Origin: a virus
Lineage: Duplodnaviria; Caudoviricetes
Virus record (IMG/VR): IMGVR_UViG_3300028591_000007
Location: 71,706 to 135,705 of that record
Strand: one strand, 5' to 3'
DNA length: 64,000 nucleotides
Shown here in pieces: positions 10,710 through 63,876 of this stretch. Made by a program: the position numbers and the translations under genes. The number at the start of each line of letters is the position of its first letter. The stretch's first letter is position 1. The notes beneath the pieces are model-generated. The model ran no database searches, had not been told where the DNA came from, and saw nothing but the letters and a program-made list of their open reading frames with translations.

Positions 10710-10733
10710 ATAATAGGAGCGAATTTTTTCGCG
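10710..10733 (-). promoter_or_regulatory. phage promoter CGCG-N14-TATTAT
   Basis: Member of the fixed-spacing motif family (about 22 copies). Confidence 0.75.
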
Positions 10734-10956
10734 AATTCCGAAGTGTTTTGGTTTTAACACTTTGGTCAATAAGCTAAAGTCAGCTTGTCTGACGGGAGCG
10801 AATTCTAGAGTGAAGGTTTTTAACACTCTAGCTAATACTGGAAGTTTGCTTGTCAAACTGAGCGAATTCTATACTACAGCTGTAGAATACTTTTGCAAAA
10901 ATATCCAGTAAGTAAAAAAATAAATGAGCATAAACTACAGCTCCTCTAAATATCAT

Positions 10957-12210
10957 TTATCTCTCCTCTCTATTTTTAGGGAATAAATATCCAAAGAATT
11001 TCTCTTCATTAAATTTCTTCTTTTGTTTAATAGCTCTTGCAATTCCTCTATCAATTCCTGATTTAGTTTTGAAATGATAATACCACAAGTTAGTAAATGG
11101 TGTTGTTAATCTATCAATTCTTCCAGCTGCTTGTACCATTACTTTATATGAATAGTTTGGACTAAAGAATATAATTGTATCTGTTTGTGTGCAATTCCAT
11201 CCTTCATTACCTGCATTGTATTGTACAAGATAAACCCAAATATCATTTGTTGGTATTTCTTCATGTTTATGACCATTCCATTGTGTATAAGGTATTTGCG
11301 TTTTATCAAAGAGTTCTTTCAATGCATCAAGCTCATAATCAAAATTATAAAATATAATTACTTTCTTTCTCGTCTCAATAATATCCAATATAATGTTAAA
11401 CTTCTCTGGTGATAGATTACAAACTTTTCGTAATGCGCTACACAATTCATTAGCATTCTTAAATGGCACATTCTTTTCAAAATCGAATCTTGTTTTCATT
11501 ATTTTATCATAAAGAGCACTATCATATGTTACATATATATCCTCGTGATGTTGAACAGTCTTTCTTTCAAAAGGCATATCAACTAAAATATCATTTCTCA
11601 ATTGTTCAAGTTTAGGTACATTTAAATATCGTTCAACTTGTCTAAACTTTGAGAAAGGATTATACACAACATGCTGTAATCTAAAATCTGTAAAATTCTT
11701 GTAAAAGCCATTTGCTATAAATACTGGAATATAATCTAACCATGTATCACCTGGTGTTGCACTAAGTAATATCCATTCATTATACTTTGCCAAACATAAA
11801 AAAGACTTAACCCAAGTTCCTGTACCAATTACTCGTTGTTCATCAAATATAAAATATGCATCAGTAACTAATGGTCTCCAACCTCTACCTTCTTTATGCT
11901 CAACATACTTGTGCAAATTATTCCATGAATCAATTACTACTTTATTACCAAAGTTCTTACCATTTCTTGATAAACCAAAATGTAGTAATTCATCATCCCA
12001 CTCAAATGTATCTCTTTTTCTTGCTGTTGTGATAATATATAAATCTTTCATTTGTTTTGGAAATCTGAAAGGTTCTATACTTCCTCCAGCTTTTAAAAAA
12101 TAATATGAGATACTTGTAATACTTTTACCAGAACCAACACCACCACAAAGAATACATCCATTCTTCATTTGTGTAAGTGCTTTCTTCTGATGATTTCGTA
12201 ATGTTACCAT
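10957..12210 (-). CDS. superfamily 2 (SNF2/ResIII-like) helicase
   Basis: GVGSGKS Walker A, FDEQ Walker B, SATP motif III, QAAGRIDR motif VI. Confidence 0.9.
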   Translation of the reverse strand: MVTLRNHQKKALTQMKNGCILCGGVGSGKSITSISYYFLKAGGSIEPFRFPKQMKDLYIITTARKRDTFEWDDELLHFGLSRNGKNFGNKVVIDSWNNLHKYVEHKEGRGWRPLVTDAYFIFDEQRVIGTGTWVKSFLCLAKYNEWILLSATPGDTWLDYIPVFIANGFYKNFTDFRLQHVVYNPFSKFRQVERYLNVPKLEQLRNDILVDMPFERKTVQHHEDIYVTYDSALYDKIMKTRFDFEKNVPFKNANELCSALRKVCNLSPEKFNIILDIIETRKKVIIFYNFDYELDALKELFDKTQIPYTQWNGHKHEEIPTNDIWVYLVQYNAGNEGWNCTQTDTIIFFSPNYSYKVMVQAAGRIDRLTTPFTNLWYYHFKTKSGIDRGIARAIKQKKKFNEEKFFGYLFPKNREER

Positions 12211-12300
12211 AAAACTACCTCTTTTTGGCTGTTTTTTTGCCGTTTTTATTTTGTGAAAAAATATAAAAAATATTATTTTAAAACTATTTATTAAATATAC

Positions 12301-12415
12301 TCCTCTCGCGCGCGAGGTAAAATGATATAAAAAATACGACCAAGTTCTTCGCGCATTATGCGTACGTACGCGTACCTGGGCGGATGCGCTAGGCGGGCGC
12401 TGGCGCGCGCGAGGA
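12301..12415. other. GC-rich, CG-repeat intergenic island
   Basis: CTCGCGCGCGAG palindrome ... GCGCGCGCGAGGA, flanked by A/T tracts. Confidence 0.6.
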
Positions 12416-12473
12416 TTTCACTGTGTTTTTCTTATTCAAAAATAGGACAAAAATAAGACAAATATTTTGTCAC

Positions 12474-12608
12474 AAAAAAAATAAAAAAGAAGCTAAGAAT
12501 CCTCTCACGTCCACTGTCTTTCAAGCCGCTAGATCGGTCTCCCGTAATCTATTAGTCACCTAATAAACATTCTTATTTAACTATAACCTATTGCTCAATT
12601 ATAGCCTT
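12474..12608 (-). ncRNA. candidate promoter-driven small RNA
   Basis: Follows the promoter at 12615-12638; ends pair (AAGAAGGCT/AGCTTCTT); long U-run; no ORF. Confidence 0.45.
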
Positions 12609-12614
12609 CTTTTC

Positions 12615-12638
12615 ATTATATAATATTCTTTTTACGCG
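12615..12638 (-). promoter_or_regulatory. phage promoter CGCG-N14-TATAAT
   Basis: Motif family member; overlaps the upstream gene's stop codon. Confidence 0.75.
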
Positions 12639-12952
12639 ACCCAAAATATTAAAATATCATTATCAAAATTGCAATTCATATCTTCAGGTAAAACTATATT
12701 AACTTCATTATCAAATTTAAAATAGTCTTCATAATTTGTAATTATAAAACAATGATAATAATATGAATCGGAATTGTTATCTCTCTTTTCAATAGAATAC
12801 TTTCTCAAAATATCAAAGAATTCTTTTTGTGAATCTTTACTAATAAATAATTCATCTGTGACATCACCTTCTGGATACATTGATAAATAAGGTAATACTT
12901 TGTCATTGTTGCATTCTTTTGAATAAATTCCATAATAAATACTATTTCCCAT
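12632..12952 (-). CDS. hypothetical protein
   Basis: ORF with AAGGAG RBS. Confidence 0.7.
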   Translation of the reverse strand: MGNSIYYGIYSKECNNDKVLPYLSMYPEGDVTDELFISKDSQKEFFDILRKYSIEKRDNNSDSYYYHCFIITNYEDYFKFDNEVNIVLPEDMNCNFDNDILIFWVA

Positions 12953-12967
12953 TATATATTCTCCTTT

Positions 12968-13309
12968 TCATGTAAGTGCTTCTTTGATCATATTCTTTAT
13001 TTCATTATAAGTTTCTTTTACATATAAATCTTTATTACATTCTTTATTAAAACCAACTAATTGAATAATAGCATTTGCATTTTGTGCTTCATCTTGTATG
13101 CTAGTAATTCTTTCTTTTAAAGTATCACCAAACAAATTATAAAATGCTTGCATTTCTTCACTATCAGTTATTTCTGTAATCATATCTTTATCACTTTTTG
13201 TCATTGGAATAACACGAAGGATATTGTTAACATTGATTAAACTTTTTTCATCACATTTGGTAACTTCAATAAAATTTTTCATATATATTCTCCTTTCTAA
13301 AAATATCAT
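12968..13309 (-). CDS. hypothetical protein, paralog of 15555-15881
   Basis: MKNFIEV..IN.NNI and ET..EIK..I shared with the paralog; likely start at MKNF. Confidence 0.7.
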   Translation of the reverse strand: MIFLERRIYMKNFIEVTKCDEKSLINVNNILRVIPMTKSDKDMITEITDSEEMQAFYNLFGDTLKERITSIQDEAQNANAIIQLVGFNKECNKDLYVKETYNEIKNMIKEALT

Positions 13310-13424
13310 TCAAGATAAGGATCTGCACCTTATATGATATAAAGTTTTGCTAAGATTATTCTTAATGGTTTTATATATCTTTAACCCTATCACTAAAAAC
13401 GTCTACCTATTCCGCCACCTGAAT
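13308..13424 (-). ncRNA. tRNA-like RNA with anticodon arm replaced by a long insert (copy A)
   Basis: Acceptor ATTCAGG/CTTGAAT, D arm TGGCGGAATAGGTAGACG, T arm ATAAGG-TGCAGAT-CCTTAT. Confidence 0.75.
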
Positions 13425-13552
13425 GATGATTGCTTACTCATGAGGGACATACCACTTTCAGCTTGAGGCCCATATTCATTTATATAGCGCACCAAAAGCT
13501 CCTCTGTGCTTCAACTGCCATTGTGTCCACGGCCATCCGTGCGCATAAATTT

Positions 13553-13738
13553 GTATTCAAGAAATAATTCATACAATTTCACCATCTATTCAACCCCTAC
13601 GTTTTACCAAATATGGTTCTAGTTTACTTATTCGTTAGATGCACCCTTTTCGGGTATTAAGTGACATTACTGCCTCAGCCTTCAACTGCCGTAGGCGACA
13701 TCCAGCATCTTGACCATATGAATTAATTTCTTGAATAA
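13553..13738 (-). ncRNA. candidate ~185-nt structured RNA
   Basis: Terminal stem TATTCAAGAAATTAATTCATA/TATGAATTATTTCTTGAATA; internal AGATGC/GCATCT pairing and ACCC-GAAAA-GGGT hairpin; starts just after tRNA-Gln. Confidence 0.55.
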
Positions 13739-13739
13739 A

Positions 13740-13812
13740 CAGCCCCTACTGGATTCGAACCAGTGAATAACGGTGTCAAAGACCACCGCCTTCACCACTT
13801 GGCTAAGGGGCT
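13740..13812 (-). tRNA. tRNA-Gln(UUG)
   Basis: Cloverleaf AGCCCCT/AGGGGCT, anticodon loop CTTTGAC, T arm ACTGG-TTCGAAT-CCAGT; CCA not encoded. Confidence 0.9.
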
Positions 13813-13824
13813 ACAAAATATCAT

Positions 13825-14247
13825 TTATCGAATTATTTCTTCAAATCTAAACTTTTGCTTTATGTTCGGATATTTTTCTTTGTCCACTTCACTTACAAAT
13901 TCATTATATGGACGAACATATAATTTAAAATCTCCATACATAGCACGATATATAACCATTGATGATTGATCTAAAGTATTAATAGCAAAATCTTCTATTC
14001 TATATATGTATTTATTTTGTGCTTTTTCTGCATCTGATAATGTTTCATATTTAAAATGCTTTACTATACTTCCGACTTGTATCATTTTTTCTCCTTTTGG
14101 TTCTTCATATTCCATATTAAGCCATTCTTCCATACAATCAATATCATCTATGTAAGCTGATCTAAGTGCAAGGATTTGTGGCTGGATTGATCTGCTCCAA
14201 TATATTTCCTTGCCAAATATCTTTTTAAATTTTTCTCTATTTGTCAT
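13825..14247 (-). CDS. DUF1653-domain protein
   Basis: VKHFK..Y, VIYRAMYG, YVRPYNEF.SEVD.EKYP, Q..RFE. Confidence 0.8.
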   Translation of the reverse strand: MTNREKFKKIFGKEIYWSRSIQPQILALRSAYIDDIDCMEEWLNMEYEEPKGEKMIQVGSIVKHFKYETLSDAEKAQNKYIYRIEDFAINTLDQSSMVIYRAMYGDFKLYVRPYNEFVSEVDKEKYPNIKQKFRFEEIIR

Positions 14248-14465: not shown

Positions 14466-14492
14466 ACCTTATTTCTCCTTTCTAAAAATATC

Positions 14493-14624
14493 ATTCAGGG
14501 TAAAGATTTGCACCTTACACAAGATACCAGAACTAATATCTCTCGCCATTTATACGCCAATCTACGGCTCAGTCTGTTCAGATTACTCTGCTTGCTATGC
14601 GTCTACCTATTCCGCCACCTGAAT
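14493..14624 (-). ncRNA. tRNA-like RNA with anticodon arm replaced by a long insert (copy B)
   Basis: Acceptor ATTCAGG/CCTGAAT, same D arm as copy A, T arm GTAAGG-TGCAAAT-CTTTAC; 7 nt downstream of tRNA-Gln. Confidence 0.75.
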
Positions 14625-17635: not shown

Positions 17636-17657
17636 AATTCCTCCCTTTTCATAGAAT

Positions 17658-17770
17658 GGTCTTATAAAGCACCAGAAGCCTCATTTAGGCCTGTTTCATA
17701 TTTTACCCTGCAATTATACTGGAATTATACTAAAAAGCCAAATATGGGCATTCTGGTGCGTCTGAGAGCA
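17658..17770. repeat. ~115-bp imperfect palindromic element, copy A
   Basis: GCACCAGAA...TTCTGGTGC arms with an AT-rich core; homologous to copies B-D. Confidence 0.8.
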
Positions 17771-17828
17771 CTTTCCTGCAAACCAGGAAACTACATTTCT
17801 CACTTTGTTCAAAATACATTATAAAATA

Positions 17829-18065: not shown

Positions 18066-18097
18066 TTTATATACCTCACAAATATCATTTTTCTAAA

Positions 18098-18213
18098 TAC
18101 CCTCTGTAACGCACTACAAGCCTCATTTAGGCCCATTTCGTATTTTACCATACAATTATACCATAAATATACCAAACAGGCCTTTACGGGCATTCTGATG
18201 CGTTACAGGGGCA
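18098..18213. repeat. ~115-bp imperfect palindromic element, copy B
   Basis: CCTCTGTAACGCA...TGCGTTACAGGGG arms. Confidence 0.8.
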
Positions 18214-18238
18214 TATCTTGATTACTAAATATCTTTAA

Positions 18239-23358: not shown

Positions 23359-23910
23359 CTAAATAAAGTATGATTTTAGATACAAATTAGCCTGCATATA
23401 TAGGTCATCATTCATATTTGAGTAAACTTCTCTACAAGGGAACAAAACAGGAGGATTTTCATTACCTTTTGGCTCTCTTCCATTAAAAGTTCCATGTATA
23501 AAATCATTCAAAATACCAGCCACAATATCCTGATCAAAATCATATTTTGTAGCCCATTTTAAACCCAAATTATCTATAAACATCCAGAAAAAATCACATC
23601 GTTTTAAACTAACAATATACGTCAATCTATCAGCAAAAGCAACCAACATTTCAAGCATCGAACAAGGTTTATTTTGTAATAGATTTAGCAATAAATTTCC
23701 ATCATTTTCACCCAATAATTTGGCATAAATTTTTCTCAATTTTAGACCATCTGCAGCCCTATTTTCGTCAAGAGGAACCGACTCTAACCAAACAAAATCC
23801 GTGTTAAATAAAAGCTCGATTAAATCCTCATATAAACCAGCTTTTTCTTTATCATCAATCTGTTCAACCAACCAATCAACATACAATTTAACCAAATATT
23901 CTTCATTCAT
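23359..23910 (-). CDS. hypothetical protein
   Basis: AGGAGG RBS; DENRAADG..LR and CSMLEML motifs. Confidence 0.75.
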   Translation of the reverse strand: MNEEYLVKLYVDWLVEQIDDKEKAGLYEDLIELLFNTDFVWLESVPLDENRAADGLKLRKIYAKLLGENDGNLLLNLLQNKPCSMLEMLVAFADRLTYIVSLKRCDFFWMFIDNLGLKWATKYDFDQDIVAGILNDFIHGTFNGREPKGNENPPVLFPCREVYSNMNDDLYMQANLYLKSYFI

Positions 23911-24007: not shown

Positions 24008-24031
24008 TTTATATTATAAAACATTTTCGCG
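24008..24031 (-). promoter_or_regulatory. phage promoter CGCG-N14-TATAAA
   Basis: Motif family member, immediately after the upstream stop. Confidence 0.55.
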
Positions 24032-27604: not shown

Positions 27605-27617
27605 ATTATCTCCTTTT

Positions 27618-27744
27618 CTAGAATGCCCTTCTAACGCACCAGAATCGATTTTAAGGCCTATTTCATATTTATTCATAGATTTATACCTTAAATACCCCAA
27701 ACAGGCCTTTATGGGCATTTTAGAGCGTTCTAGAGGCATTTCTA
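27618..27744. repeat. ~115-bp imperfect palindromic element, copy C
   Basis: TAGAATGCC...GGCATTTCTA arms; shares CAGGCCTTTA(C/T)GGGCA with other copies. Confidence 0.8.
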
Positions 27745-27754
27745 TGAATAAGTT

Positions 27755-32641: not shown

Positions 32642-32968
32642 TTACTTCTCAGGAGTTGCCTCTGCAGGCTTTGTTTCCTGAGACTCTGCTGCCGGCGCCT
32701 GTGTTTCAGCTGTTGCAGGTGCTGCTGTTGTTGTCTTTGCATTCAGAGTATCCTCGAGCTGCTTTCTCTTCTTGTGTTCTCTGATCAAAAGCCAAATTAC
32801 TATCGGTAACCCAATTCCTGATATTCCTATCAGTCCAAGGATTACGTAGAAAATGACCTTATGACCAGTGTCCACAGAATCATCTGCAACTACCGGACAT
32901 GTGTCCTGCTCAACAACGTTGCTAACCTGTTCTGCTACGGGTGTCATTACATTGTTCTCATTCTCCAT
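32642..32968 (-). CDS. single-pass membrane protein in a promoter-terminator cassette
   Basis: TM segment VIFYVILGLIGISGIGLPIVIWLLI; GGAGG RBS. Confidence 0.75.
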   Translation of the reverse strand: MENENNVMTPVAEQVSNVVEQDTCPVVADDSVDTGHKVIFYVILGLIGISGIGLPIVIWLLIREHKKRKQLEDTLNAKTTTAAPATAETQAPAAESQETKPAEATPEK

Positions 32969-33018: not shown

Positions 33019-33042
33019 AATATACATGCATAAAATTTCGCG
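33019..33042 (-). promoter_or_regulatory. phage promoter CGCG-N14-TATATT
   Basis: Motif family member. Confidence 0.75.
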
Positions 33043-33290: not shown

Positions 33291-33314
33291 ATTATATTGC
33301 CATAAAAAATCGCG
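33291..33314 (-). promoter_or_regulatory. phage promoter CGCG-N14-TATAAT
   Basis: Motif family member. Confidence 0.75.
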
Positions 33315-34623: not shown

Positions 34624-34950
34624 TTACTCTTCCTGATACTCCGGCTTGAGTACATACTTATAGTCTATGTATGTATGCTCCTCTACCGGGATTTTATCAT
34701 ACTTGTCCATTATTGTAGGGTCGGGGAGTTTCTCAACCTCTACTACTGTCTTCTTACTAAATGCCTTAGCTCCAATCCATGTAGAGATCACTGCTCCTCC
34801 GATTACTCCTGCAATCGATGCAACTTTATGATCTCTTGCCCAGTCAAGAGTCTTCTCATACCAAGACTTGTCCTCAACTGTTGTTTCCTGAGTATCGTTT
34901 ACCTCTTCATCGTATAACACTTCATCCTGAATCGTTTCGTTCTCATTCAT
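34624..34950 (-). CDS. single-pass membrane protein in a promoter-terminator cassette
   Basis: TM segment VASIAGVIGGAVISTWIGA. Confidence 0.75.
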   Translation of the reverse strand: MNENETIQDEVLYDEEVNDTQETTVEDKSWYEKTLDWARDHKVASIAGVIGGAVISTWIGAKAFSKKTVVEVEKLPDPTIMDKYDKIPVEEHTYIDYKYVLKPEYQEE

Positions 34951-34988: not shown

Positions 34989-35012
34989 ATAATATACATA
35001 TTAATTTTCGCG
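34989..35012 (-). promoter_or_regulatory. phage promoter CGCG-N14-TATTAT
   Basis: Motif family member; overlaps the upstream gene end. Confidence 0.75.
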
Positions 35013-35839: not shown

Positions 35840-36121
35840 TTATTTTGTTTCAGTTGGAGTTTCCTCCGTTGTTTGTGTTGCAACCTGAGCCTGAGCCTGA
35901 GCTGCTTTGTCGGCGTCATAAGCATCCTTTTCTTTCAATATCTTCCAAGTGCCTACTGCAGCACCTGAAATTCCTGTCAAGATTGCACCTACCAGACCGA
36001 CAATCTTCAGTCCAGACTCTGTCTTATCAAACTTTCCAAACATATTACAGTTCCTCCTTATATTCTTTAATATTTGTCTTGCTATAATGCAATTAAATAA
36101 GTTCGCGAAGTCACGAATCAC
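35840..36121 (-). CDS. single-pass membrane protein in a promoter-terminator cassette
   Basis: Real start likely MFGKF after AAGGAGG; GxxxG TM segment. Confidence 0.7.
   Translation of the reverse strand: MIRDFANLFNCIIARQILKNIRRNCNMFGKFDKTESGLKIVGLVGAILTGISGAAVGTWKILKEKDAYDADKAAQAQAQVATQTTEETPTETK
36084..36107 (-). promoter_or_regulatory. phage promoter CGCG-N14-CATTAT
   Basis: Motif family member. Confidence 0.65.
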
Positions 36122-36860: not shown

Positions 36861-37124
36861 TTAACTCTGTTTAGTCCCTTGCTCTCTTGTTACAAAATTT
36901 GTTTCAAAATATTTTCTGTCCATAATTACAACATCCGGCTTTTTCTCCTTCTTTAAGAACATCTTTAAAATTCGTGTTACTAATATTGCTATAATGACAA
37001 CCGGCAACATCCAGATGCCAAAGCTTAGCAAACCAATTGCCAATGCTCCTAAAGCAAGAAGAAACATTATACCTAATATAATTGTAAACATGTTACTACC
37101 TCCTTTAATATTATTGAGACACAT
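36861..37124 (-). CDS. small membrane protein in a promoter-terminator cassette
   Basis: Long hydrophobic segment; real start MFTII after AAAGGAGG. Confidence 0.7.
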   Translation of the reverse strand: MCLNNIKGGSNMFTIILGIMFLLALGALAIGLLSFGIWMLPVVIIAILVTRILKMFLKKEKKPDVVIMDRKYFETNFVTREQGTKQS

Positions 37125-37133: not shown

Positions 37134-37157
37134 ATAATATAGATGGAGATTTTCGCG
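37134..37157 (-). promoter_or_regulatory. phage promoter CGCG-N14-TATTAT
   Basis: Motif family member. Confidence 0.75.
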
Positions 37158-37627: not shown

Positions 37628-38173
37628 TTATACTTCTTTTCTTACATTCTCAAGTTTCTTAATGGTATTTGTGATACCTGCTTGAGCCTGCTTTGATACT
37701 GCGGTTCTAAATGTACCGGTTTCCTCAAAGTACATTGACTCCAAGAATGCCTTTCTGCTAAAATAGATACTCAGACCTGTACCGATTAATCCAATACCAG
37801 CAACTCCCCATTTAGCAATCAGATCTCTCTTAGCAGCCTTCTTCTCATTCTCGGCTTTTACTTCTTCAATTTTGACCTTCTTTTCCTCGATCTCTTTCTC
37901 ATTATCGATTCTTTTCAGTTCAAGTTCTCTGTCAGCATTAGCCTTATCCTGATCAATATTAAGCTTACGCTCTTCGAGTTCTAATTTCTTTGCCTCATTA
38001 GCGAATTTCTGAGCTTCGTTCTCTGCTTTCATCAACTCAATCTGAGCCCTCTTATCATCCTTCTTAGACTCTTTTACTTCTTCTTCCGGTTCATCGGCGA
38101 GATAATACTCGTCTTCTACCTCAGTCTCTACTACATTCTCAACAGGATCAACTTCTTTTTTCTTTCCCATCAT
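37628..38173 (-). CDS. coiled-coil membrane protein in a promoter-terminator cassette
   Basis: Coiled coil followed by the TM segment GVAGIGLIGTGLSIYF. Confidence 0.75.
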   Translation of the reverse strand: MMGKKKEVDPVENVVETEVEDEYYLADEPEEEVKESKKDDKRAQIELMKAENEAQKFANEAKKLELEERKLNIDQDKANADRELELKRIDNEKEIEEKKVKIEEVKAENEKKAAKRDLIAKWGVAGIGLIGTGLSIYFSRKAFLESMYFEETGTFRTAVSKQAQAGITNTIKKLENVRKEV

Positions 38174-38208: not shown

Positions 38209-38232
38209 ATAGTATAGACATAAAAATTAGCG
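38209..38232 (-). promoter_or_regulatory. phage promoter CGCT-N14-TACTAT
   Basis: Degenerate motif family member. Confidence 0.6.
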
Positions 38233-40440: not shown

Positions 40441-41325
40441 TTAATACAAATAATTTATTTCATTTCCGGATGCGTTCCAATATGCTTTATATCTTATCTT
40501 TGCATAGAACTGTGTTCCGATTCGTACACCTTCATCAAACTTATTACTATAATCTATGCCATGATAACCGCATCTATCATATGACCAACCAGCTTCTTGT
40601 GCTTCTGGACAACTTGTTGAATCATATTTAACTTCATTTTGTGCATACCGACTTAAATTATACAAGAAGTCTGCAACAGGTACAAAGTCTTCTTGACCGG
40701 TCTTTATACGATAATTTATCTCTTCGAATGCTCTAACTATATCTGATTCACTACAATAAATAGTCTGCTTAGTTAAAGGTTCAAAGAATGCTGCCGGTCC
40801 ATTATAAATATTATTCTCATAATTACTCTTTTGTGTCTCTAAGAATTTCTGTTCTTCTTCTTTCTTTACGGGATTCTCGAGAATATCGTTTTTCATCTTT
40901 TCTCGTTCAATCTCTTTTTCCTTTTCACCTAAGACTTTCTCAGCTGCTTTCTTATAAGTTTCAAACGCTTGATTAGTTGCTGCTAATGCTGTAGTTAATC
41001 CAGCAATCTTTGTTGCACTTATCTTGTAAGACTTAACAGTACAATAAATAGTTATAGTTGCTCCAAGTACTACTGGTGCTAATGCAGGCCACTTTTCCTT
41101 AACATGTAATATAACACTATCTTTCTTTGTAACAATCTCACCAGCGGCTTTCTTTTCTTCAATCTTCTTCTTTACAATTTCATCTTTTTTCTGAAGTTTC
41201 TTTCCTGCAAAGATAGACACTACCGAAGTTGCTACAACTCCTACGCAGGCAAGTCCTGTTAAAATAAGAGGACTGTCCTTCTTCATATCAGACCAACCCT
41301 CTTCAAAAATTTTGTACAAGTTCAT
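40441..41325 (-). CDS. membrane-associated phage protein (DUF6353-like)
   Basis: KKDSPLILTGLACVGVVATSV N-terminus; paralog of 29611-30615. Confidence 0.75.
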   Translation of the reverse strand: MNLYKIFEEGWSDMKKDSPLILTGLACVGVVATSVVSIFAGKKLQKKDEIVKKKIEEKKAAGEIVTKKDSVILHVKEKWPALAPVVLGATITIYCTVKSYKISATKIAGLTTALAATNQAFETYKKAAEKVLGEKEKEIEREKMKNDILENPVKKEEEQKFLETQKSNYENNIYNGPAAFFEPLTKQTIYCSESDIVRAFEEINYRIKTGQEDFVPVADFLYNLSRYAQNEVKYDSTSCPEAQEAGWSYDRCGYHGIDYSNKFDEGVRIGTQFYAKIRYKAYWNASGNEINYLY

Positions 41326-41386: not shown

Positions 41387-41410
41387 ACTATAGCACTAAA
41401 CATTTTCGCG
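41387..41410 (-). promoter_or_regulatory. phage promoter CGCG-N14-TATAGT
   Basis: Motif family member. Confidence 0.75.
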
Positions 41411-42583: not shown

Positions 42584-44359
42584 TTAAATAGGATTATTAC
42601 GCATTCTCATTATAGCTGCTGCACTAACACCAAGCATCTGTCCAAGCTCAAATGCAGAATAACCATTACCATAGAATTTATTTATTGCAAAATGTTTACA
42701 TTCTCTATCAAAGTATTTTTGTAATTCAGACATACATTTATACTTGCCTTCATACTTTACTTTAGTCCTTTCAAGAATATCTTCTGATTCTTCTTTGGTA
42801 AGATAACTAGGGAATGCTATTTCGGTTAATCTTTTGTGATAACCACCACGAGGTTTCTTTTCCTTCTTGGAATTCTTAACCGCTTTCTTAAGAATTCTTG
42901 CAGCTTTCTTCTCAGTCTTAGGATTAGTATATGCATCGAGATATTTCTTTACAAAATACTCAGTCAATCCTAATTCTTTTGAAATCTTGTTAATAGAATA
43001 ACCCTTATTAAATAAATCAATAATATTCTGGTCAGTAATTGTGTCTTTCTCTTCCATGTTACAAGGTTTATTATCTGGAATTTTATTTACAGAATTAGTG
43101 ACTTTCTTTAAATCATCTAAATATGATAATAAATTTTCTTTTGCGGTTTCCCAAACAGTCTTATTTTTAGTTTCAAGAATATCTTTAACTTCACCTTTAG
43201 TAATACCAAGACATCTTGCAATCCTCTCAACCGAATAATCAAGAGCTTTTAATGCTTTTACTCTATCTTCAGTTTTAAGATTTACAGCATTATACATATA
43301 CTTTAATACATAGTTATAATGCCAGTCTTTATCATTTTTATAAAAATAATCTTTAACAATAGACATTGCTATAACTTTTTCAACATCTATTTCATCTTTA
43401 TAAGGAATATCAAATATTTCAGTCCATTTATTACTATTATGAATATACTTACATAAAACCATTAAGATTCCCTTTTCAGGATCATAGTCATCTCCAGGTC
43501 TACACTTAACAACCACTTTCTTATTATCTGTTGTGAATAAGATAGTTGCAGGTCCATTCAGCTTAATATCTTTAATCTTAGTCATTTTAGTCTCCTTTTT
43601 TGACATGTTTAAAGGTTTACAATCCCAACTCCATTGTTTTTCCAATTTATTTGTTATTCTAGGTTCTTCTTTCTTAGATTTTGTAAAGCGAATACAATCA
43701 TTTAAATCAGTAAAGAATTCTACATTTTTATGACAAATATTGCCATAATATATTACTTTTTCATATGCATTATGCAAATTTTTATCTGTTAAGAAATTTC
43801 TACTATCAAATTCTAATATGCGAAATGTTAATAAATCTGAAGAAGTTGAAACTGTTATAACTGGTTCAATCGGAACATATCTTAAAGTAAAATCAGTGCG
43901 ATAATTATTCCAAATAGCAGTTTTAATTGCTCGAGTATCACCATTTTTATATACAAAACTATCATATTCTTCCTTAGTCAAAGTAAAGTAATATGTTTGT
44001 TTATCATTCTCAGACTTTGTTAAATTATTATTGTGCAAAGTGTATTTATAATTATCACGTATATAAACACCAAATGCAGAATTAAATAACTTTACTCTAA
44101 TCTCTTTATTGCAATCTTTAAATGATTTTAAAGTTATTAAACTTAATGGTTTCAACGCTTGAAATTTATCATCGAAACCAATTATTGCAAAAGGTTCAGC
44201 AAAATAAGTTATTTCAGCTATAAATGTTCTTACAAATATACCATCAGTTATATCTATAAAAACTTTGTCATTAACTTCATATTTTCCATTTTCTTTTTTA
44301 TCTACCAATTGACAAAATTCTTTTAAATCATTAATATCTAAACCAAAATATAAATGCAT
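42584..44359 (-). CDS. multi-domain protein with three HTH-like modules
   Basis: NGPATI..K.VVKC..GD.YDPEKG domain; YSVERIARCLGIT, YSINKISKELGLT, YSAFELGQMLGVS. Confidence 0.7.
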   Translation of the reverse strand: MHLYFGLDINDLKEFCQLVDKKENGKYEVNDKVFIDITDGIFVRTFIAEITYFAEPFAIIGFDDKFQALKPLSLITLKSFKDCNKEIRVKLFNSAFGVYIRDNYKYTLHNNNLTKSENDKQTYYFTLTKEEYDSFVYKNGDTRAIKTAIWNNYRTDFTLRYVPIEPVITVSTSSDLLTFRILEFDSRNFLTDKNLHNAYEKVIYYGNICHKNVEFFTDLNDCIRFTKSKKEEPRITNKLEKQWSWDCKPLNMSKKETKMTKIKDIKLNGPATILFTTDNKKVVVKCRPGDDYDPEKGILMVLCKYIHNSNKWTEIFDIPYKDEIDVEKVIAMSIVKDYFYKNDKDWHYNYVLKYMYNAVNLKTEDRVKALKALDYSVERIARCLGITKGEVKDILETKNKTVWETAKENLLSYLDDLKKVTNSVNKIPDNKPCNMEEKDTITDQNIIDLFNKGYSINKISKELGLTEYFVKKYLDAYTNPKTEKKAARILKKAVKNSKKEKKPRGGYHKRLTEIAFPSYLTKEESEDILERTKVKYEGKYKCMSELQKYFDRECKHFAINKFYGNGYSAFELGQMLGVSAAAIMRMRNNPI

Positions 44360-48278: not shown

Positions 48279-48644
48279 TTACTTCTTGGTACTGGTTGAA
48301 GTAACAAGTTCTCCAAAATAACTTTCAGTTGTTACTTCATAAGAATTGTCAAACCACTCAGGTTTCTCATCACAGAGTACAAGTTCTGCACATGTTTCGT
48401 TACCATCCTGATCAATAATACCAACACCAACATGCTCTCCTTCTTTTAATTCATTAACACGATCTAATAAATATCTGTTAATTGCATTATCATCTTTCAA
48501 AGTATGCTGGTATTCGGTATTGAACTTTCCTAACTTGTAAGCTACAATGCTTCCTCCCACAGTTCCGATACCACCTAAGATCCACGGTAATGTCTTCTTC
48601 ATCTTTTTCTTAAAAGTTTCTTCAACCATTTTATTTACCTCCAT
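48279..48644 (-). CDS. membrane-anchored protein in a promoter-terminator cassette
   Basis: GGIGTVGG TM segment; probable paralog of 36367-36765. Confidence 0.7.
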   Translation of the reverse strand: MEVNKMVEETFKKKMKKTLPWILGGIGTVGGSIVAYKLGKFNTEYQHTLKDDNAINRYLLDRVNELKEGEHVGVGIIDQDGNETCAELVLCDEKPEWFDNSYEVTTESYFGELVTSTSTKK

Positions 48645-48669: not shown

Positions 48670-48693
48670 ACTATAGCGTTAAATAAATCCGCG
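48670..48693 (-). promoter_or_regulatory. phage promoter CGCG-N14-TATAGT
   Basis: Motif family member. Confidence 0.75.
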
Positions 48694-57524: not shown

Positions 57525-58574
57525 TTATATTTCATTATAGTATTTACATCCTTCCATTGACATATTGCATAAAAATCCTCCAGTACATTTATTACCAAAT
57601 CCTTTAAAATGCACACAATTTTCACAAAGTCCACTATCTTCATTATAATATTCTTCTGGAACAAAGTCTTTACAAGCTTCCTTACCTTGTTCTCCCAACT
57701 GACATTCATAACGGTTATCACACTCGTCACAAATATTTGTATGCTCTTTTTCTTCAATACAGTTATCTTTTTCATCTTCTGACTTAAAACTTAATCCATA
57801 ACTTAACAACTTATCCCGTATCTCTTGTAAGGACCTACGACCAAGATTTCTTACTTGCATTACATCTGATTCGGTAGCATTACAAATATCTTTTATTGTA
57901 TTATAGCCACCACGCTTAAGACAATTGTAGGTTCTTACGCTAAAGCCAACTTCATCAAGAGGTAGAGAATAACTTATTTCTGTCTTTACATCAGTTTTTA
58001 CTTCTATACCAACATTATTCAAAGCATCAGTTAATATCTTTATATGATTCATTGATTCAGTTATAAGATCACTTAACTCATTCTTCTTTAAAGTTAATAC
58101 ATCGGTCTTTTCTTTTATTTCCTGAGAAAGTTTAAAAGGAGAGAATATTGCCTTAGCTCTCATTGGATGTCTCATTTTTCTTAAAGCTTTATTCTCAATC
58201 ATCCTTATTCTTTCTCTTGTAACACCAAATCCTTTTGCAATTTCACCAAGAGTTAATTTTCCTCTGAACCTCATGCGAAGAATATTTGCTTCTTTTGCTT
58301 CCATTAAGTTGTCTAAGATGTATTCTATATTTGCTTCAACTTCTTTTATAGATTTAGCATCATTTATAGCTATTTCATTTTTATAACCAAATATACAATA
58401 AATAAGATTCATAGGATATTCAATATCAATATCACAATCTTTATCATCTTTACTATTTAAATCACCATATAACAATTCCAATAATTTTGCAAGTTCATCA
58501 TATTCTATATTAGTTAAAGCGCTATGATTTTTACACTTATCTGTTATTACTTTAATCATAAAATTATCAGACAT
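57525..58574 (-). CDS. sigma70 region-4 / RNA polymerase alpha-CTD fusion with Cys-rich tail
   Basis: TLGEIAKGFGVTRERIRMIENKALRKMRHP (sigma 4.2); FSVRTYNCLKRGG.NTI..VRNLGRRSLQEI (alpha-CTD); two CxxC clusters. Confidence 0.9.
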   Translation of the reverse strand: MSDNFMIKVITDKCKNHSALTNIEYDELAKLLELLYGDLNSKDDKDCDIDIEYPMNLIYCIFGYKNEIAINDAKSIKEVEANIEYILDNLMEAKEANILRMRFRGKLTLGEIAKGFGVTRERIRMIENKALRKMRHPMRAKAIFSPFKLSQEIKEKTDVLTLKKNELSDLITESMNHIKILTDALNNVGIEVKTDVKTEISYSLPLDEVGFSVRTYNCLKRGGYNTIKDICNATESDVMQVRNLGRRSLQEIRDKLLSYGLSFKSEDEKDNCIEEKEHTNICDECDNRYECQLGEQGKEACKDFVPEEYYNEDSGLCENCVHFKGFGNKCTGGFLCNMSMEGCKYYNEI

Positions 58575-59933: not shown

Positions 59934-59957
59934 ATAACGGGAACAGACTTTTTCGCG
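59934..59957 (-). promoter_or_regulatory. phage promoter CGCG-N14-CGTTAT
   Basis: Degenerate -10; followed by a ~70-nt ORF-less unit and a terminator. Confidence 0.55.
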
Positions 59958-60356
59958 CTAGCCCTCAATTTGCTCAAAGAACTCACAAGTATTCAAAGCA
60001 AATGTTTCCTTATTATCTCTTGTACAAGTATATTTTGCTTTAATAAGATTTTGTCCTCTACCAAATTGTTTCATGCATTTTGTACAATTCATACAACATT
60101 TAGATATAGTTTTATTAATTTTATTATTTTTATATATTTGATGTTTGAACTGAAATACATCTGTATTACCAAGATTGAGTGATTCATTTAACATTATATC
60201 TTCCATTTCCTGGAACTTTAATCCTCTTTCAATTGTAGCAATATCTTTATCATCAAGTATATTTGCTTCAATTATTTTGTTAAGTATTCTATTAGATTCG
60301 TCGAACATTTTAAATAATCTCCTCTCCATAAACTGTGAACACTGATAAAAATGCAT
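59958..60356 (-). CDS. Cys-containing hypothetical protein
   Basis: Real start likely MFDES. Confidence 0.6.
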   Translation of the reverse strand: MHFYQCSQFMERRLFKMFDESNRILNKIIEANILDDKDIATIERGLKFQEMEDIMLNESLNLGNTDVFQFKHQIYKNNKINKTISKCCMNCTKCMKQFGRGQNLIKAKYTCTRDNKETFALNTCEFFEQIEG

Positions 60357-60717
60357 CTATATGATTAATTTTTCTAGGTTTTCTATCATTCCAGAAAATC
60401 CTGACAAGACCATTTTCACGTTCAACATCAATGCTTATACCATTTCTACCAAAGTTCATTAAACTAGCAACATCATGCCAATCGCCAAAATTATAATACT
60501 TTTTAGCATTATCTTCATCATAGTTATAACCAACTATTTGCATGCAATTATAACCTGAACCATCATCAAATTCTTCATCTTCATCTGTAGGAATTACATA
60601 GAAACCCCTGATTTCAACTTCCTCAAAATCTTTAATCATGTTTTTAAGAATGTAGTCTTTTGTGTCCATCATGTTTTTGTCTCCTTTTTGTATGTGTGTT
60701 TTTATTTGTAAGAACAA
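60310..60717 (-). CDS. hypothetical protein
   Basis: Real start likely MMDTK; DGSGYNCM. Confidence 0.65.
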   Translation of the reverse strand: MFLQIKTHIQKGDKNMMDTKDYILKNMIKDFEEVEIRGFYVIPTDEDEEFDDGSGYNCMQIVGYNYDEDNAKKYYNFGDWHDVASLMNFGRNGISIDVERENGLVRIFWNDRKPRKINHIDAFLSVFTVYGEEII

Positions 60718-60876
60718 GAGAACCGTAGTTATCCACTATCAGCTCTCCCGCTCTTCTTTGGTAAGAGGTAGGATATAGATATGTCGACCCTAGTTGACTA
60801 ATATCAATTATTTATAAATTTCATTAAATAACTAATATTAATCAATTAAGTTCATATATCTGAGGCCCTACCTCCT
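60712..60876 (-). ncRNA. candidate promoter-driven long-hairpin RNA plus terminator
   Basis: ~110-nt rod at 60765-60874 (GAGGTAGG/CCTACCTC, TAATTGATTAATATTAGTTATTTA/TAAATAATTGATATTAGTCAACTA). Confidence 0.55.
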
Positions 60877-60877
60877 C

Positions 60878-60901
60878 AATATACGGTAATTAAATTTCGC
60901 G
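60878..60901 (-). promoter_or_regulatory. phage promoter CGCG-N14-TATATT
   Basis: Motif family member. Confidence 0.75.
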
Positions 60902-60981
60902 AATTGATTATTTGTTAGACTGTTTACGAATTAAAAAAAAAAATAGAGCAGTTTAAAGTCTTGCTCAGGACCTTGTGATAA

Positions 60982-61281
60982 TTACTTCTTTGTACTAGAG
61001 GAGATTTTTGTTTCAACTTCCTTAAAATTATCCTCAGTAATCTTAGTACGTGCCTCAACTCCGTCCAAACGATTGTCTAAACCCACTATGATTTTCTTTA
61101 GATCATTTACTTCACTCTGTGTCTTATTCTTAGACACTATTGTAAAATACTTGTCTATTGCTGTCATAGCAATGTCTACAACCTTTGAAAGGTCTTCCTC
61201 AACGTTTTCACTACTGTAATTAATCTGTACATCAAACTTCATTGTTCTACCTCCATTTTTATAATGTTTATTAACTACCAC
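60982..61281 (-). CDS. coiled-coil protein in a promoter-terminator cassette
   Basis: Real start likely MKFDV after GGAGG. Confidence 0.65.
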   Translation of the reverse strand: MVVNKHYKNGGRTMKFDVQINYSSENVEEDLSKVVDIAMTAIDKYFTIVSKNKTQSEVNDLKKIIVGLDNRLDGVEARTKITEDNFKEVETKISSSTKK

Positions 61282-61284
61282 TGC

Positions 61285-61308
61285 ATAATATAGACATTAA
61301 ATTTCGCG
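61285..61308 (-). promoter_or_regulatory. phage promoter CGCG-N14-TATTAT
   Basis: Motif family member. Confidence 0.75.
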
Positions 61309-61386
61309 TTTTGTTAGACCGTTTGCGAATTTCAAAAAAAAAAAAATAAGGACTTATTTATAGTCGCTCCTTATACGACTTTATTA

Positions 61387-61734
61387 TTATTCCTTTGTTA
61401 AATCTTCAAACTCAGTTAATTCCGATTCTATAAAATTAACTGTATTATTGTACGCTTTCACTACATTTACATACATTTTTTCTGCTTTACTTCTGTTAAT
61501 ACGAATTAATATCATTGGCACTACATCAAATGCTACTAATAATACCGGCCATAATGCTACTAATGCTAATGTAAACTCAATAATTCCTAATGTTTTCAAG
61601 AATTTACCAAATTTATGATGTCCTTCTAACATCTTTTCATAATTTTGATAACTCTTTGATTCAAACATATTCTTTACTGTTTTTGCATTAATTAGTGCAT
61701 AAATGATGCCGATTAATAAATATGTAGTTATCAT
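61387..61734 (-). CDS. membrane protein in a promoter-terminator cassette
   Basis: Two hydrophobic segments; AAAGGAG RBS. Confidence 0.7.
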   Translation of the reverse strand: MITTYLLIGIIYALINAKTVKNMFESKSYQNYEKMLEGHHKFGKFLKTLGIIEFTLALVALWPVLLVAFDVVPMILIRINRSKAEKMYVNVVKAYNNTVNFIESELTEFEDLTKE

Positions 61735-61845
61735 ATATACTCCTTTCTGTATTAACCTCCAGTTGCATAATATGAATGGAAATAAAAACGAAAGGAACCA
61801 AATATCTTGATTCCAATCGTTCTGAATATTTACACAACAAATGAA

Positions 61846-62070
61846 TTACTTACAATACAAATAATTTCTTCTTCCGAATCTGTAAACATTTGCAAGTTTG
61901 CTAGCTCGTTTGCAGTGGTGATCAACTTTTCTCATTCCAAGTTCGGGTAGATCTACCGTCCCGCAATCCGCTTCCATTTTTGCTATTACTTTGTTTACTG
62001 ATAACTTGCGAAATTTTTCTGTTTTCATAAGCATATCCTCCATGTTGTTTAATAAGCTACCATTATACAA
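61846..62070 (-). CDS. small basic protein in a cassette
   Basis: Real start likely after GGAGG (MKTEK). Confidence 0.55.
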   Translation of the reverse strand: MYNGSLLNNMEDMLMKTEKFRKLSVNKVIAKMEADCGTVDLPELGMRKVDHHCKRASKLANVYRFGRRNYLYCK

Positions 62071-62105
62071 ATAGAGATTTTAGCGAAAATTTATAGTAAT
62101 ATTAT
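62062..62105. promoter_or_regulatory. divergent promoter pair sharing one core
   Basis: - strand CGCT-N14-TATAAT; + strand AGCG-N14-TATTAT. Confidence 0.7.
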
Positions 62106-62148
62106 GAGAAACTCATTAAATATTTTTTTATAAAATAGGAGGTATATT

Positions 62149-62379
62149 ATGGAAAGAACTAGTTACATTTGCGATAAATGTGGTAAGGAATTTAAGTCGT
62201 ATAATGAATTAGAAAGTTATTGGCCTTTATGCATTGAACAATGCTATAAAAGGAGTAGTAACTTTAGTAGGATCAATGATAAATTAAAAGTAGATTTATG
62301 CAATGAATGTAATAAACTTTTTAGAAAACGCATCAATGATTTTATAACAGAATTAAGTAAAGAGTTTAATTCTCAATAA
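62149..62379 (+). CDS. small zinc-ribbon protein (+ strand)
   Basis: AGGAGG RBS, YICDKC..DLCNEC, own promoter and a hairpin terminator at about 62386-62420. Confidence 0.75.
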   Translation: MERTSYICDKCGKEFKSYNELESYWPLCIEQCYKRSSNFSRINDKLKVDLCNECNKLFRKRINDFITELSKEFNSQ

Positions 62380-62463
62380 TAAAGTAGGTAGTCTTGTAGA
62401 AATACAGGACTATCTTTTTTAAAAAATTTAGCGCCAAATTTCGACGCTAAATATCTTTTGAAA

Positions 62464-62685
62464 CTACTTTAGGATCAAACCAAGAAATTCAGTATGGTTA
62501 TGATCAATTATACGAGTCAGTAATACATTATATTCATCATATTTCTTGTTAAAGGGAGTATATCCTAACTTCTTGTAGAATTCCACACAAAAGTTAAGAT
62601 CATTTTCCTCTTCATCAATATTTCTGATGAAACCATAATGATTACCATTTGTCTCGTTTAACATCCATGTTTCTTTTACTATCAT
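62464..62685 (-). CDS. hypothetical protein in a cassette
   Basis: AAAGGAGG RBS; promoter at 62712-62735 (CGCA-N14-TATTAT). Confidence 0.7.
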   Translation of the reverse strand: MIVKETWMLNETNGNHYGFIRNIDEEENDLNFCVEFYKKLGYTPFNKKYDEYNVLLTRIIDHNHTEFLGLILK

Positions 62686-62786
62686 ATCTTAATCCTCCTT
62701 TATTAGTTTCTATAATATAGGTAAATATCTTTGCGAAAAAAATAAGGGGAAAATATATCCCCTTTTATGATAAACAATAAATAGCT

Positions 62787-63086
62787 TTATATTCGTGATA
62801 TAATATCTTCAGCAGTAAGCCAACCTTCATAGCAATCGCCATTTCGGACAATATCGCCCATGATCTCAAGTAATCCATCTAATCCACCGTAAGAACAATA
62901 ATGACATACAGCATCCCACTTACGTTTATCTATTTCTTTATCATATTTTGATTTATAAATAATTATCTGGTGGAATTCTCTTTCATCAGGGTGTTCATAT
63001 GTTGGATATTGATCGATTCTTTTATAAATTAAGCCTTTATCCTTACAATACTTTTCGAGTTTGTTTAATTCCTTTAAATTTATCAT
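62787..63086 (-). CDS. hypothetical protein in a cassette
   Basis: WDAVCH..SYG...GLLEIMG, GWLTAED; AAAGGAGG RBS. Confidence 0.75.
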   Translation of the reverse strand: MINLKELNKLEKYCKDKGLIYKRIDQYPTYEHPDEREFHQIIIYKSKYDKEIDKRKWDAVCHYCSYGGLDGLLEIMGDIVRNGDCYEGWLTAEDIISRI

Positions 63087-63129
63087 ATCTTAATCCTCCT
63101 TTATGTGCAAAGCTATTTATATTGCTTTC

Positions 63130-63173
63130 AATATATACTTATAAAAATGCGCGTTATTTAATGTTCATATAAT
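63130..63173. promoter_or_regulatory. divergent promoter pair on one palindromic CGCG
   Basis: CGCG at 63150-63153 with TATATT (- strand) and TATAAT (+ strand), each exactly 14 nt away. Confidence 0.8.
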
Positions 63174-63194
63174 GAGAAAGAGAGGTGATATATA

Positions 63195-63431
63195 ATGTTA
63201 AAAACATATCTAATTGTTTACGTCATTGTATACATAACTTGGTATCTGATCAATAAGGTATTTGATGGACAACCTGATAAATATCTTAGGGCAAAGATCT
63301 GGTACATATTTGAAACACAATATGGGATCATAGTACCTGAAGATATGAAACAGAATCCATTAAAGTATCTGTTGGCAGATCTCAAGAGTATGTTACATAA
63401 GAAAGGAGGTAAAAAACATAAAGATGAGTAG
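63195..63431 (+). CDS. small membrane protein (+ strand)
   Basis: GAGGTG RBS, N-terminal TM segment, own promoter, GAGTAG/CTACTC terminator. Confidence 0.7.
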   Translation: MLKTYLIVYVIVYITWYLINKVFDGQPDKYLRAKIWYIFETQYGIIVPEDMKQNPLKYLLADLKSMLHKKGGKKHKDE

Positions 63432-63481
63432 CAGTTATATTTACTACTCTCTTTTTTACAAAAAAAAAAGAAAGAGGAGCA

Positions 63482-63601
63482 TTACGCTCCTTCTTCCTCT
63501 TTCTTATCAGATACAGTAATTCTACCAAGAATATATCCATAAGCGATAAGTATCAGTGATAAGAAAAACATTCCAATATTCTCTTTTGTTTTCTTACTCA
63601 T
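63482..63601 (-). CDS. 39-aa membrane peptide (not in ORF track)
   Basis: GGAGG RBS; MSKKTKENIGMFFLSLILIAYGYILGRITVSDKKEEEGA; promoter at 63653-63676. Confidence 0.65.
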   Translation of the reverse strand: MSKKTKENIGMFFLSLILIAYGYILGRITVSDKKEEEGA

Positions 63602-63753
63602 AATAACTACCTCCATTTTGATTTATTATTTTGTATATTACTTTATCTTGCTATAATATAGACATAAGTTTTCACGAAAGAAAGGCCGAAGTACTATGTA
63701 CAAGCTCCTTATCTTTTCAATTTCCTAACTATGTTAGAAAATAAAAAAGAAAG

Positions 63754-63827
63754 GCCCTTAGATAGCTTCGAACTATCGTCTCTCACATAAGTGAGCGTAA
63801 TATCCCATTATACGATATTAACAGGGT
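63754..63827 (-). ncRNA. tRNA-like RNA with collapsed 4-nt anticodon loop
   Basis: D arm GTA-TAATGGGATAT-TAC, CTCAC-TTAT-GTGAG, T arm GATAG-TTCGAAG-CTATC; bulged acceptor; own promoter and U-run. Confidence 0.6.
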
Positions 63828-63852
63828 ATAACTCCCTTTTATCCTCCTTTCC

Positions 63853-63876
63853 AATATAAAAGAGTATGTTTTCGCG
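63853..63876 (-). promoter_or_regulatory. phage promoter CGCG-N14-TATATT
   Basis: Motif family member. Confidence 0.75.

Follow-up and report, generated by a model that had tools for sequence, protein, structure and literature searches.

A long, rigidly spaced promoter motif that accompanies a predicted two-barrel RNA polymerase in phages of two bacterial phyla

Introduction

What reads a promoter in which a TATAAT-like hexamer is paired with a CGCG box and has no -35 element? This question is raised by the last 64 kb (64,000 nucleotides, the window from here on) of the IMG/VR virus record IMGVR_UViG_3300028591_000007, which is 135,705 bp long and has 32% GC. Almost all of the genes are on the minus strand, and the window includes genes for the large terminase subunit, a primase-polymerase and a helicase, together with two genes for tRNA-Gln and extended stretches of small open reading frames. 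A preliminary description of the window had listed 22 sites (20 on the minus strand and 2 on the plus strand) where CGCG or a variant lies exactly 14 nt before a TATAAT-like hexamer. It took them for a phage-specific promoter class at which the host sigma factor SigA reads the hexamer as a -10 element and a phage factor reads the box near -30, and it named three candidates for that factor: a fusion of sigma region 4 and the C-terminal domain of the RNA polymerase alpha subunit (sigma4/alpha-CTD fusion), a polymerase with helix-turn-helix (HTH) domains, and a protein with three HTHs. We find that the sites are a genuine class and, from comparing related phages, we consider it likely that they are promoters of the phage's own 974-aa two-barrel RNA polymerase. 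Feature coordinates are collected in Table 1.

The sites form a discrete, oriented class

Exact copies of CGCG-N14-TATAAT occur three times in the window against 0.04 expected, and when up to one mismatch is allowed there are 16 against 1.8 expected, a count that 0 of 100 shuffles reached. When a position weight matrix (PWM) was refined over all 135,705 bp of the genome, it recovered the coordinates of all 22 listed sites and found 50 sites genome-wide at a score of at least 12, compared with 0.75 in Markov shuffles. Since the number of sites is nearly constant from a PWM threshold of 8 to one of 18, we regard them as a discrete class. The 14-nt distance between box and hexamer is rigid, with 48 sites at 14 nt versus 0-5 at the other lengths tried (11-17 nt), and CGCG is indeed rare otherwise: 15 of the 28 copies in the window belong to the motif, 9 fall in a GC-rich patch at 12307-12408 and 4 are elsewhere. 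The first CG of the box had been called invariant, which is correct for the G at position 2 (49/49) and less so for the C at position 1 (46/49), where the three exceptions are reverse readings of shared divergent sites.

As a description of the motif, CGCG-N14-TATAAT is real and too short. Information content spans about 32 contiguous positions, which in this phage read T-CGC[G/T]-[A/T]AA[A/T]T-n-T-A-T ... YY[A/C]-TAT[A/T]AT-G-purine-rich; the conserved sub-parts, apart from box and hexamer, are the T-A-T at box+10..12, pyrimidines before the hexamer, and a strong G and then purines after it. Upstream of the box nothing is conserved and the -35 position is without information content, and canonical TTGACA-N16-18-TATAAT is not enriched in the genome (8 versus 11.3 expected with up to one mismatch, 135 versus 138 with up to two). 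The earlier observation that there is no -35 element at the SigA distance is thus borne out.

Nearly all of the sites are intergenic and point at the downstream gene, lying 10-60 nt before its Shine-Dalgarno (SD) sequence and start codon, and many follow immediately on the terminator T-run of the previous gene. The promoters therefore head small promoter-gene-terminator units, which are found in early-looking, replication and tRNA regions of the genome, while the structural half (genome 18-82 kb) has none of the PWM sites. The operon containing the polymerase gene is itself headed by such a site (10733). In each of five divergent pairs one palindromic box serves both promoters, and the boxes of a sixth pair are adjacent. 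The view that the sites are a phage-specific promoter class is upheld.

Outside the window, at genome 4086 (+), a copy of the promoter has a tRNA-like sequence (GGTTAGCTCAGCTGGTAGAGC) within about 15 nt of it, so the class appears to drive tRNA genes too.

The motif tracks the polymerase across phages

Close relatives of this phage, found through the fusion protein, have kept the motif. Further IMG/VR genomes were collected through the polymerase, and 12 distant phages of 50-62 kb, with polymerases 42-46% identical, were fetched. A strict motif pattern matched in 15 of the 27 polymerase-selected IMG/VR genomes. De novo discovery on upstream regions returned the same architecture in 9/9 genomes, including all six that failed the strict pattern (for example TCGCAAAAATTAC..TTCTTAATGAA, TTCGCGAAAATTTCA..TTTATGGAA and CGCGAAATTTACA..TATTATGAGA), and the other three of the 12 (G017, G019 and G022) have CGCG at spacer 14 in a k-mer scan. 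In relatives the motif can be written (T)CGC[G/A/T]-WAAWWT-(ACA)-N5-TATWAT-G-purines, again over about 32 nt.

The same motif is found in cultured phages: TCGCGTAAATTACA.GGGCTATAATAGAAGA in Arthrobacter phage Tribby, TCGCAAGAATTACA.GCCCTATAATGAGACCCC in Streptomyces phage OlympicHelado, whose genome is 59% GC, ACGCGAAAAATACAG.CTCCTTTATGGAA in Faecalibacterium phage FP_oengus and CACAAGTTTTACATACACTATAGTAGAAAGAA in Lactococcus phage 1706. In Tribby a promoter is in the place equivalent to site 10733 here, upstream of the VRR-Nuc/exonuclease/RNAP (RNA polymerase) genes. The motif thus spans phages of two host phyla, Actinobacteria and Firmicutes, whose sigma-A promoters are very different from each other.

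In OlympicHelado (L140, 7891-15790) we noted that an inverted repeat flanks the promoters, with AGGGGTCTC before or over the CGC box and GAGACCCCT from hexamer+1. Because the repeat flanks each promoter, the 5' end of a transcript could pair with sequence at the next promoter.

The association can also be approached from the motif. Forty-five viral records were picked by an exact 18-base motif pattern alone, and 38 of them encode the polymerase; restricted to records at least 90% complete, the count is 30 of 31. When all of the phage proteins were compared with 16 motif-bearing genomes by tblastn, a polymerase homologue was present in 16/16, and the non-structural proteins universal to this set were the polymerase, its 106-aa neighbour, a Cas4-like nuclease, the helicase and the primase-polymerase. 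Among the candidate readers named earlier, the polymerase tracks the motif, whereas the fusion and the triple-HTH protein fail this comparison. The motif was not found in L018, a 7.3-kb fragment with a polymerase 38% identical, and that fragment covers late genes only. As far as sequence comparison goes, motif and polymerase are associated across genomes. We found no paper in the literature that ties the HTH-RdRP-HTH polymerase family to a promoter.

The hexamer and the probable RNA start

Directly after the hexamer, 66 of the 85 sites in this phage and its close relatives have G and 15 have A (a purine in 81/85), and in the distant relatives 196/196 sites have a purine there. The SD core starts within 6 nt of the hexamer in 7/61 sites here and in 36/130 sites in relatives, as where CTTTAT is directly followed by GGAGGTGAATCAAATG. 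At such sites, RNA that began 7 nt downstream would not include the SD. In about 27 of the 85 sites a stable hairpin begins near the first bases after the hexamer, and 5' hairpins act as transcript stabilisers. The positions of the purine, the SD and the hairpins make it likely that RNA starts at hexamer+1, in a T7-like geometry.

The hexamer itself varies between lineages. G009, G010 and FP_oengus have CTTAAT or CTTTAT and G024 has TTTTAT, with the motif otherwise identical. Recognition of a -10 element by sigma70-type factors needs an A at position 2, and because these hexamers do not have it we conclude that in these relatives the hexamer is not a sigma70 -10 element. These hexamers, the spacing, and the positions of the SD sites and hairpins speak against the proposal that SigA reads the hexamer while a phage factor reads the box.

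The 974-aa polymerase

Pfam searches of the 974-aa protein gave a weak RdRP match together with HTH_23, HTH_7 and Sigma70_r4_2 matches, the HTH ones being clear. Across 14 homologues the GADFDGD loop is invariant, as are other alignment columns, and the two HTH modules are conserved in every homologue. An AlphaFold2 model (AF2; predicted local distance difference test, pLDDT, of 75) was matched by Foldseek to QDE-1 (E 2e-9), to the P23-45-type gp64 RNAP (E 1.5e-7) and to P23-45 gp96; the structures matched include 8f72, 8f5m and 8h2m. On the invariant loop and these structural matches, the protein is predicted to be a two-barrel RNA polymerase. The orf75-type HTH-RdRP-HTH family had already been proposed as a polymerase from HHpred results (bioRxiv 10.1101/842583).

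Against 250 cultured-phage records, tblastn gave 38-44% identity over 97-99% of the length, and the hosts of these homologues include Arthrobacter, Gordonia, Streptomyces, Rhodococcus, Lactococcus (1706 orf75), Faecalibacterium (FP_oengus) and others. The polymerase family is very large, and one search gave scores for more than 8000 metagenomic proteins. The homologue in 1706, orf75 (L136 52082-55171), is annotated as a 'structural protein' and many of those in actinophages as a 'helix-turn-helix DNA-binding protein', so it looks like the family is misannotated throughout.

The N-terminus of the polymerase has an invariant SLxH-YG...RYPWGSG motif, which here is ...ESSLQH-YGTPRHSGRYPWGSGDNPYQR. 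Beside the terminase gene, at 2913-4523 (-), is the gene for a 537-aa DUF7211 protein with the N-terminus ...QNSLEH-YGVKGQKWGQRNYQNPDG; the two N-termini have in common SLxH-YG plus a Gly/aromatic motif, which may be a capsid-targeting or protease site.

How the polymerase may use the promoters

Taken together, these results suggest a sequence of events in which the enzyme's HTH modules would bind duplex DNA at two places, the CGC(G) box and, roughly one helical turn further downstream, a second sub-element (ACA in most relatives, T-A-T in this phage). The enzyme would then melt the A/T hexamer and begin RNA at the purine, usually G, right after it. With the start at hexamer+1, the hexamer would occupy -6..-1 and the CGCG box -24..-21. 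Four elements of this scheme we infer: the region of the enzyme that reads the box, its acting unaided, the position of the RNA start and the packaging of the enzyme.

The polymerase operon has the same promoter as the other units and no canonical SigA promoters were detected, which is why we think that the first polymerase molecules most likely arrive with the virion. The annotation of the 1706 homologue as a structural protein and the resemblance between the N-terminal motif and that of the DUF7211 protein lend support to delivery of this kind, which is probable on these grounds.

Several observations weigh against assigning these promoters to the polymerase. One near-complete genome has the motif without a polymerase gene. 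Box variants (CGCG, CGCA, CACA) show no clean covariation with the residues of the HTH recognition helices when 16 polymerases are compared, and the actual specificity factor could be the 106-aa neighbour. The hexamer in this phage matches TATAAT well and could be bound by host SigA, and genes end in hairpin and T-run terminators typical of bacterial RNA polymerase. Because the structural half is without these promoters, late genes need another polymerase or read-through. The case for packaging consists of one relative's annotation and one sequence motif.

There is a more ambitious form of the proposal, which we put forward tentatively and would rate at somewhat below even. The enzyme would be self-sufficient and sigma-free, its two HTHs reading CGCG (about -24..-21) and ACA/TAT (about -14..-12), one turn apart; it would melt the adjacent hexamer and start at the next G. 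Delivered in the virion, it would carry out early transcription without the host enzyme, while the sigma4/alpha-CTD mimic would shut down host -35/UP promoters, and this grammar would have been kept across two phyla.

Alternative readers of the motif

Next to recognition by the polymerase itself, the explanation that survives best is one in which the phage polymerase uses the promoters and a separate small protein, such as the 106-aa protein, reads the box in the manner of a sigma factor. The adjoining genes, the presence of the 106-aa protein in all 16 motif genomes (16/16) and the failure of any HTH residue to track the box variants fit this. However, the 106-aa protein has no Pfam match and no recognisable DNA-binding domain, every polymerase homologue has two HTH modules of its own, and two sub-elements about one helical turn apart would suit two modules on one chain. 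We consider a separate reader unlikely, and it is possible that the 106-aa protein is an accessory, a specificity factor or a partner of the polymerase.

Appropriation of the host sigma factor, as in the preliminary description, is a less probable explanation still. SigA would read the hexamer as a -10 element and a phage factor at the CGCG box would replace the -35 contact, as MotA and AsiA do in T4; the factor could be the fusion, the triple-HTH protein or, in the role of an activator that uses its HTHs, the 974-aa protein. In this phage the hexamer is TATWAT and there is no -35, the box is located about where the MotA box is, and the phage encodes a host-like protein of sigma region 4 and alpha-CTD and hence deals with the host polymerase. 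But the motif persists without the fusion (0/26 genomes) and without the triple-HTH protein, it is kept across two host phyla with a rigid spacer, several lineages have a hexamer without A at position 2, and it is immediately downstream of the hexamer that SD sites and hairpins begin. There are no host-type early promoters above chance from which a factor could be expressed first. Searches of the genome found no AsiA (PF09010), no MotA C-terminal domain (PF09158) and no sigma region 2 (Sigma70_r2), a model that could miss divergent phage sigmas; a phage sigma factor was set aside as a reader on this last result. The fusion's helix (VTRERIRMIE) is nearly that of SigA, which predicts binding to TTGACA.

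The individual candidates for such a factor were also considered on their own. The sigma4 part of the fusion has a recognition helix, VTRERIRMIENKALRKMRHP, that is nearly the same as SigA's, and the DNA-binding residues of the alpha-CTD are retained, so the protein should read -35/UP-type DNA and not CGCG. It was rejected as box reader on the SigA-like helix and on its absence from 26/26 relatives of 50-68 kb, which have no alpha-CTD, and from 16/16 motif genomes by tblastn. A protein search for the fusion found about 1890 metagenomic proteins with E<=0.001, and both domains occur in most of the 120 listed ones; peptide patterns found no relatives of the fusion in IMG/VR, and the metagenomic ones came from the protein search. 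It is likelier that the fusion acts against host transcription than that it reads CGCG promoters; it may be a decoy or blocker of host -35/UP-dependent promoters or of the beta-flap. The triple-HTH protein (42584-44359) was rejected because its Pfam HTH matches are weak and the genomes with the strongest motif have no homologue.

That these are ordinary host-type promoters read by the host housekeeping sigma alone is very improbable. The hexamer is TATAAT-like, and a G-rich discriminator (GGGA) can strengthen -35-less promoters, but the same motif is in phages of Lactococcus, Faecalibacterium, Arthrobacter and Streptomyces, the spacing is rigid, the SD would be inside the discriminator, and the phage's sigma4 copy has a canonical -35-reading helix, suggesting a host with normal promoters. 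We give equally little credence to a repeated operator, protein-binding or recombination site, which would account for the palindromic CGCG core used jointly by divergent pairs but not for a strand and position that depend strictly on the gene or tRNA downstream, for the A/T melting element with its conserved run of purines behind it, or for the placement of sites straight after terminators, with the SD 10-60 nt further on.

Comparison with known systems

A close parallel is Thermus phage P23-45, which has a virion RNAP, gp96, with an AT-rich motif and a non-virion RNAP, gp64, with a GC-rich one (bioRxiv 10.1101/2022.12.01.518664). Both systems have a phage-specific motif just upstream of starts (predicted ones in the phage studied here), a motif that co-occurs with a polymerase gene across relatives, and an enzyme of related fold; a virion-delivered enzyme that transcribes the first genes would be a further likeness. 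The motif sequences differ, and here the enzyme has two fused HTHs and the motif includes a CGC box farther out, 18 nt before the melting element.

The promoters of T7, T3 and SP6 are similar in being contiguous, rigidly spaced motifs of about 25-30 nt that occur in many copies and have an A/T melting segment up to -1, and in having RNA that starts with G and a purine-rich initial sequence (the start being a prediction in our case). However, those Pol-I-like single-subunit RNAPs have an unrelated fold. For recognition, the T7 enzyme relies on a specificity loop together with an AT-rich recognition loop and not on HTH modules. T4 middle promoters resemble the sites in lacking a -35 element and in having a conserved box about 12-14 bp upstream of a TATAAT-like hexamer. 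They differ in that here there is no AsiA/MotA homologue, the hexamer is not a -10 element in several relatives, there are no host-type early promoters, and the probable start is at hexamer+1.

The 974-aa protein is a full-length homologue of the orf75/FP_oengus/actinophage proteins, with the HTH-RdRP-like-HTH layout and the DxDGD loop, and the HTHs align in all of them; neither an activity nor a promoter is reported for the orf75 family in the literature that we found. For the SPbeta enzyme YonO, the promoter is called unknown in the paper on it (PMC5467207). In the Gordonia cluster DJ phage Vardy, a 50-bp intergenic motif present in five copies contains TATAAT, which its authors read as a sigma70 -10 element (PMC9671010). 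Vardy encodes a homologue of the polymerase (H56), and judging from the description in the announcement its motif is probably of the same promoter class; in contrast to the present analysis, the announcement does not tie the motif to the polymerase or to other phage groups.

Features of the window and of the record

Table 1. Promoter sites and related genes in the 64,000-nucleotide window (sites run from box to hexamer; gene ranges under Remarks are also window coordinates)
Feature	Position	Strand	PWM score	Remarks
106-aa protein	6312..6632	-		Family not known; gene directly follows that of the polymerase; in 16/16 motif genomes
Single-chain two-barrel RNA polymerase (predicted), 974 aa	6761..9685	-		N-terminal HTH ~95-131, C-terminal HTH 936-970; proposed user of the promoters
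Promoter	10710..10733	-	23.2	Upstream of Cas4-like exonuclease/RNA polymerase/106-aa gene block
Promoter	12615..12638	-	24.5	Exact match; followed by ~400-nt GC-rich leader and helicase gene 10957-12210
Promoter	24008..24031	-	16.2	Hexamer TATAAA; upstream of 23359-23910
Promoter	33019..33042	-	23.2	5' hairpin; upstream of 32642-32968
Promoter	33291..33314	-	25.8	Exact match; long leader
Promoter	34989..35012	-	22.4	GAAA-loop hairpin from the hexamer's end; upstream of 34624-34950
Promoter	36084..36107	-	21.3	Hexamer CATTAT
Promoter	37134..37157	-	25.3	Hairpin from hexamer+2; upstream of 36861-37124
Promoter	38209..38232	-	23.4	Box CGCT; upstream of 37628-38173
Promoter	41387..41410	-	23.6	Hairpin from hexamer+1; upstream of 40441-41325
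Promoter	48670..48693	-	19.6	Upstream of 48279-48644; orthologous site in relative L016 at 11632
Sigma region 4 + alpha-CTD fusion	57525-58574	-		Sigma70_r4 (Pfam); Cys-rich C-terminal tail
Weak promoter	59934..59957	-	11.7	Hexamer CGTTAT; heads the fusion operon; orthologous site in L014 at 9875
Promoter	60878..60901	-	25.8	
Promoter	61285..61308	-	27.2	
Promoter	61767..61790	-	16.9	Box CGTT
Back-to-back divergent pair	62062..62105	both	26.5 (-), 23.4 (+)	Common CGCT/AGCG box 62082-62085
Promoter	62712..62735	-	20.3	Box CGCA
Back-to-back divergent pair	63130..63173	both	21.1 (-), 22.4 (+)	Common palindromic CGCG 63150-63153; plus site exact match
Promoter	63653..63676	-	24.4	Box CGTG
Promoter	63853..63876	-	23.0	

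The GC-rich patch at 12307-12408 (-) has CGCGCGCG runs and is inside the leader between promoter 12638 and the helicase gene. We also observed an element of about 150 nt in four copies, at window 17636-17828, 18066-18238 and 27605-27754 (-) and at genome 12622-12798. Its inverted repeats are nested (GAATGCCC..AACGCACCAGAA ... TTCTGGTGCGTT..GGGCATTC, the inner stem being AAAGGCCT...AGGCCT) and enclose a conserved core, TTTGGTATATT-N5-GGTATAAT-N-TATGGTAAAATA, directly upstream of an SD. It could be a second promoter type, with an extended -10-like TGgTATAAT, or a structured leader RNA. An Rfam scan of the window found the two tRNA-Gln genes only, with the GC-rich leader and this repeated structured element unmatched. 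Repeated intergenic hairpins of the form CACTTTCC-N6-GGAAACTGC, some of them in tandem, are located in the structural half (genome 26929-27081 and 49665-49869), and the same form is also found near window 17700.

The two ends of the record (1-127 and 135579-135705) are an exact 127-bp direct terminal repeat. Because 127 bp is a common assembler k-mer length, the repeat probably reflects a circular assembly and not the real ends of the phage. By megablast there was no nucleotide similarity to cultured phages. The strong SD sites, the Firmicute-like sigma4/alpha-CTD and the sample names suggest a rumen or gut Firmicute as the host.

Significance

How single-chain two-barrel RNAPs such as those of YonO, crAss-like phages and P23-45 find their promoters is largely an open question. 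A defined, rigid promoter of about 32 nt makes the activity and the recognition of this polymerase family testable by in vitro transcription. If the assignment is true, the annotation of thousands of phage genomes would be corrected, and the family could become the source of a compact, orthogonal pair of polymerase and promoter for use in Gram-positive hosts.

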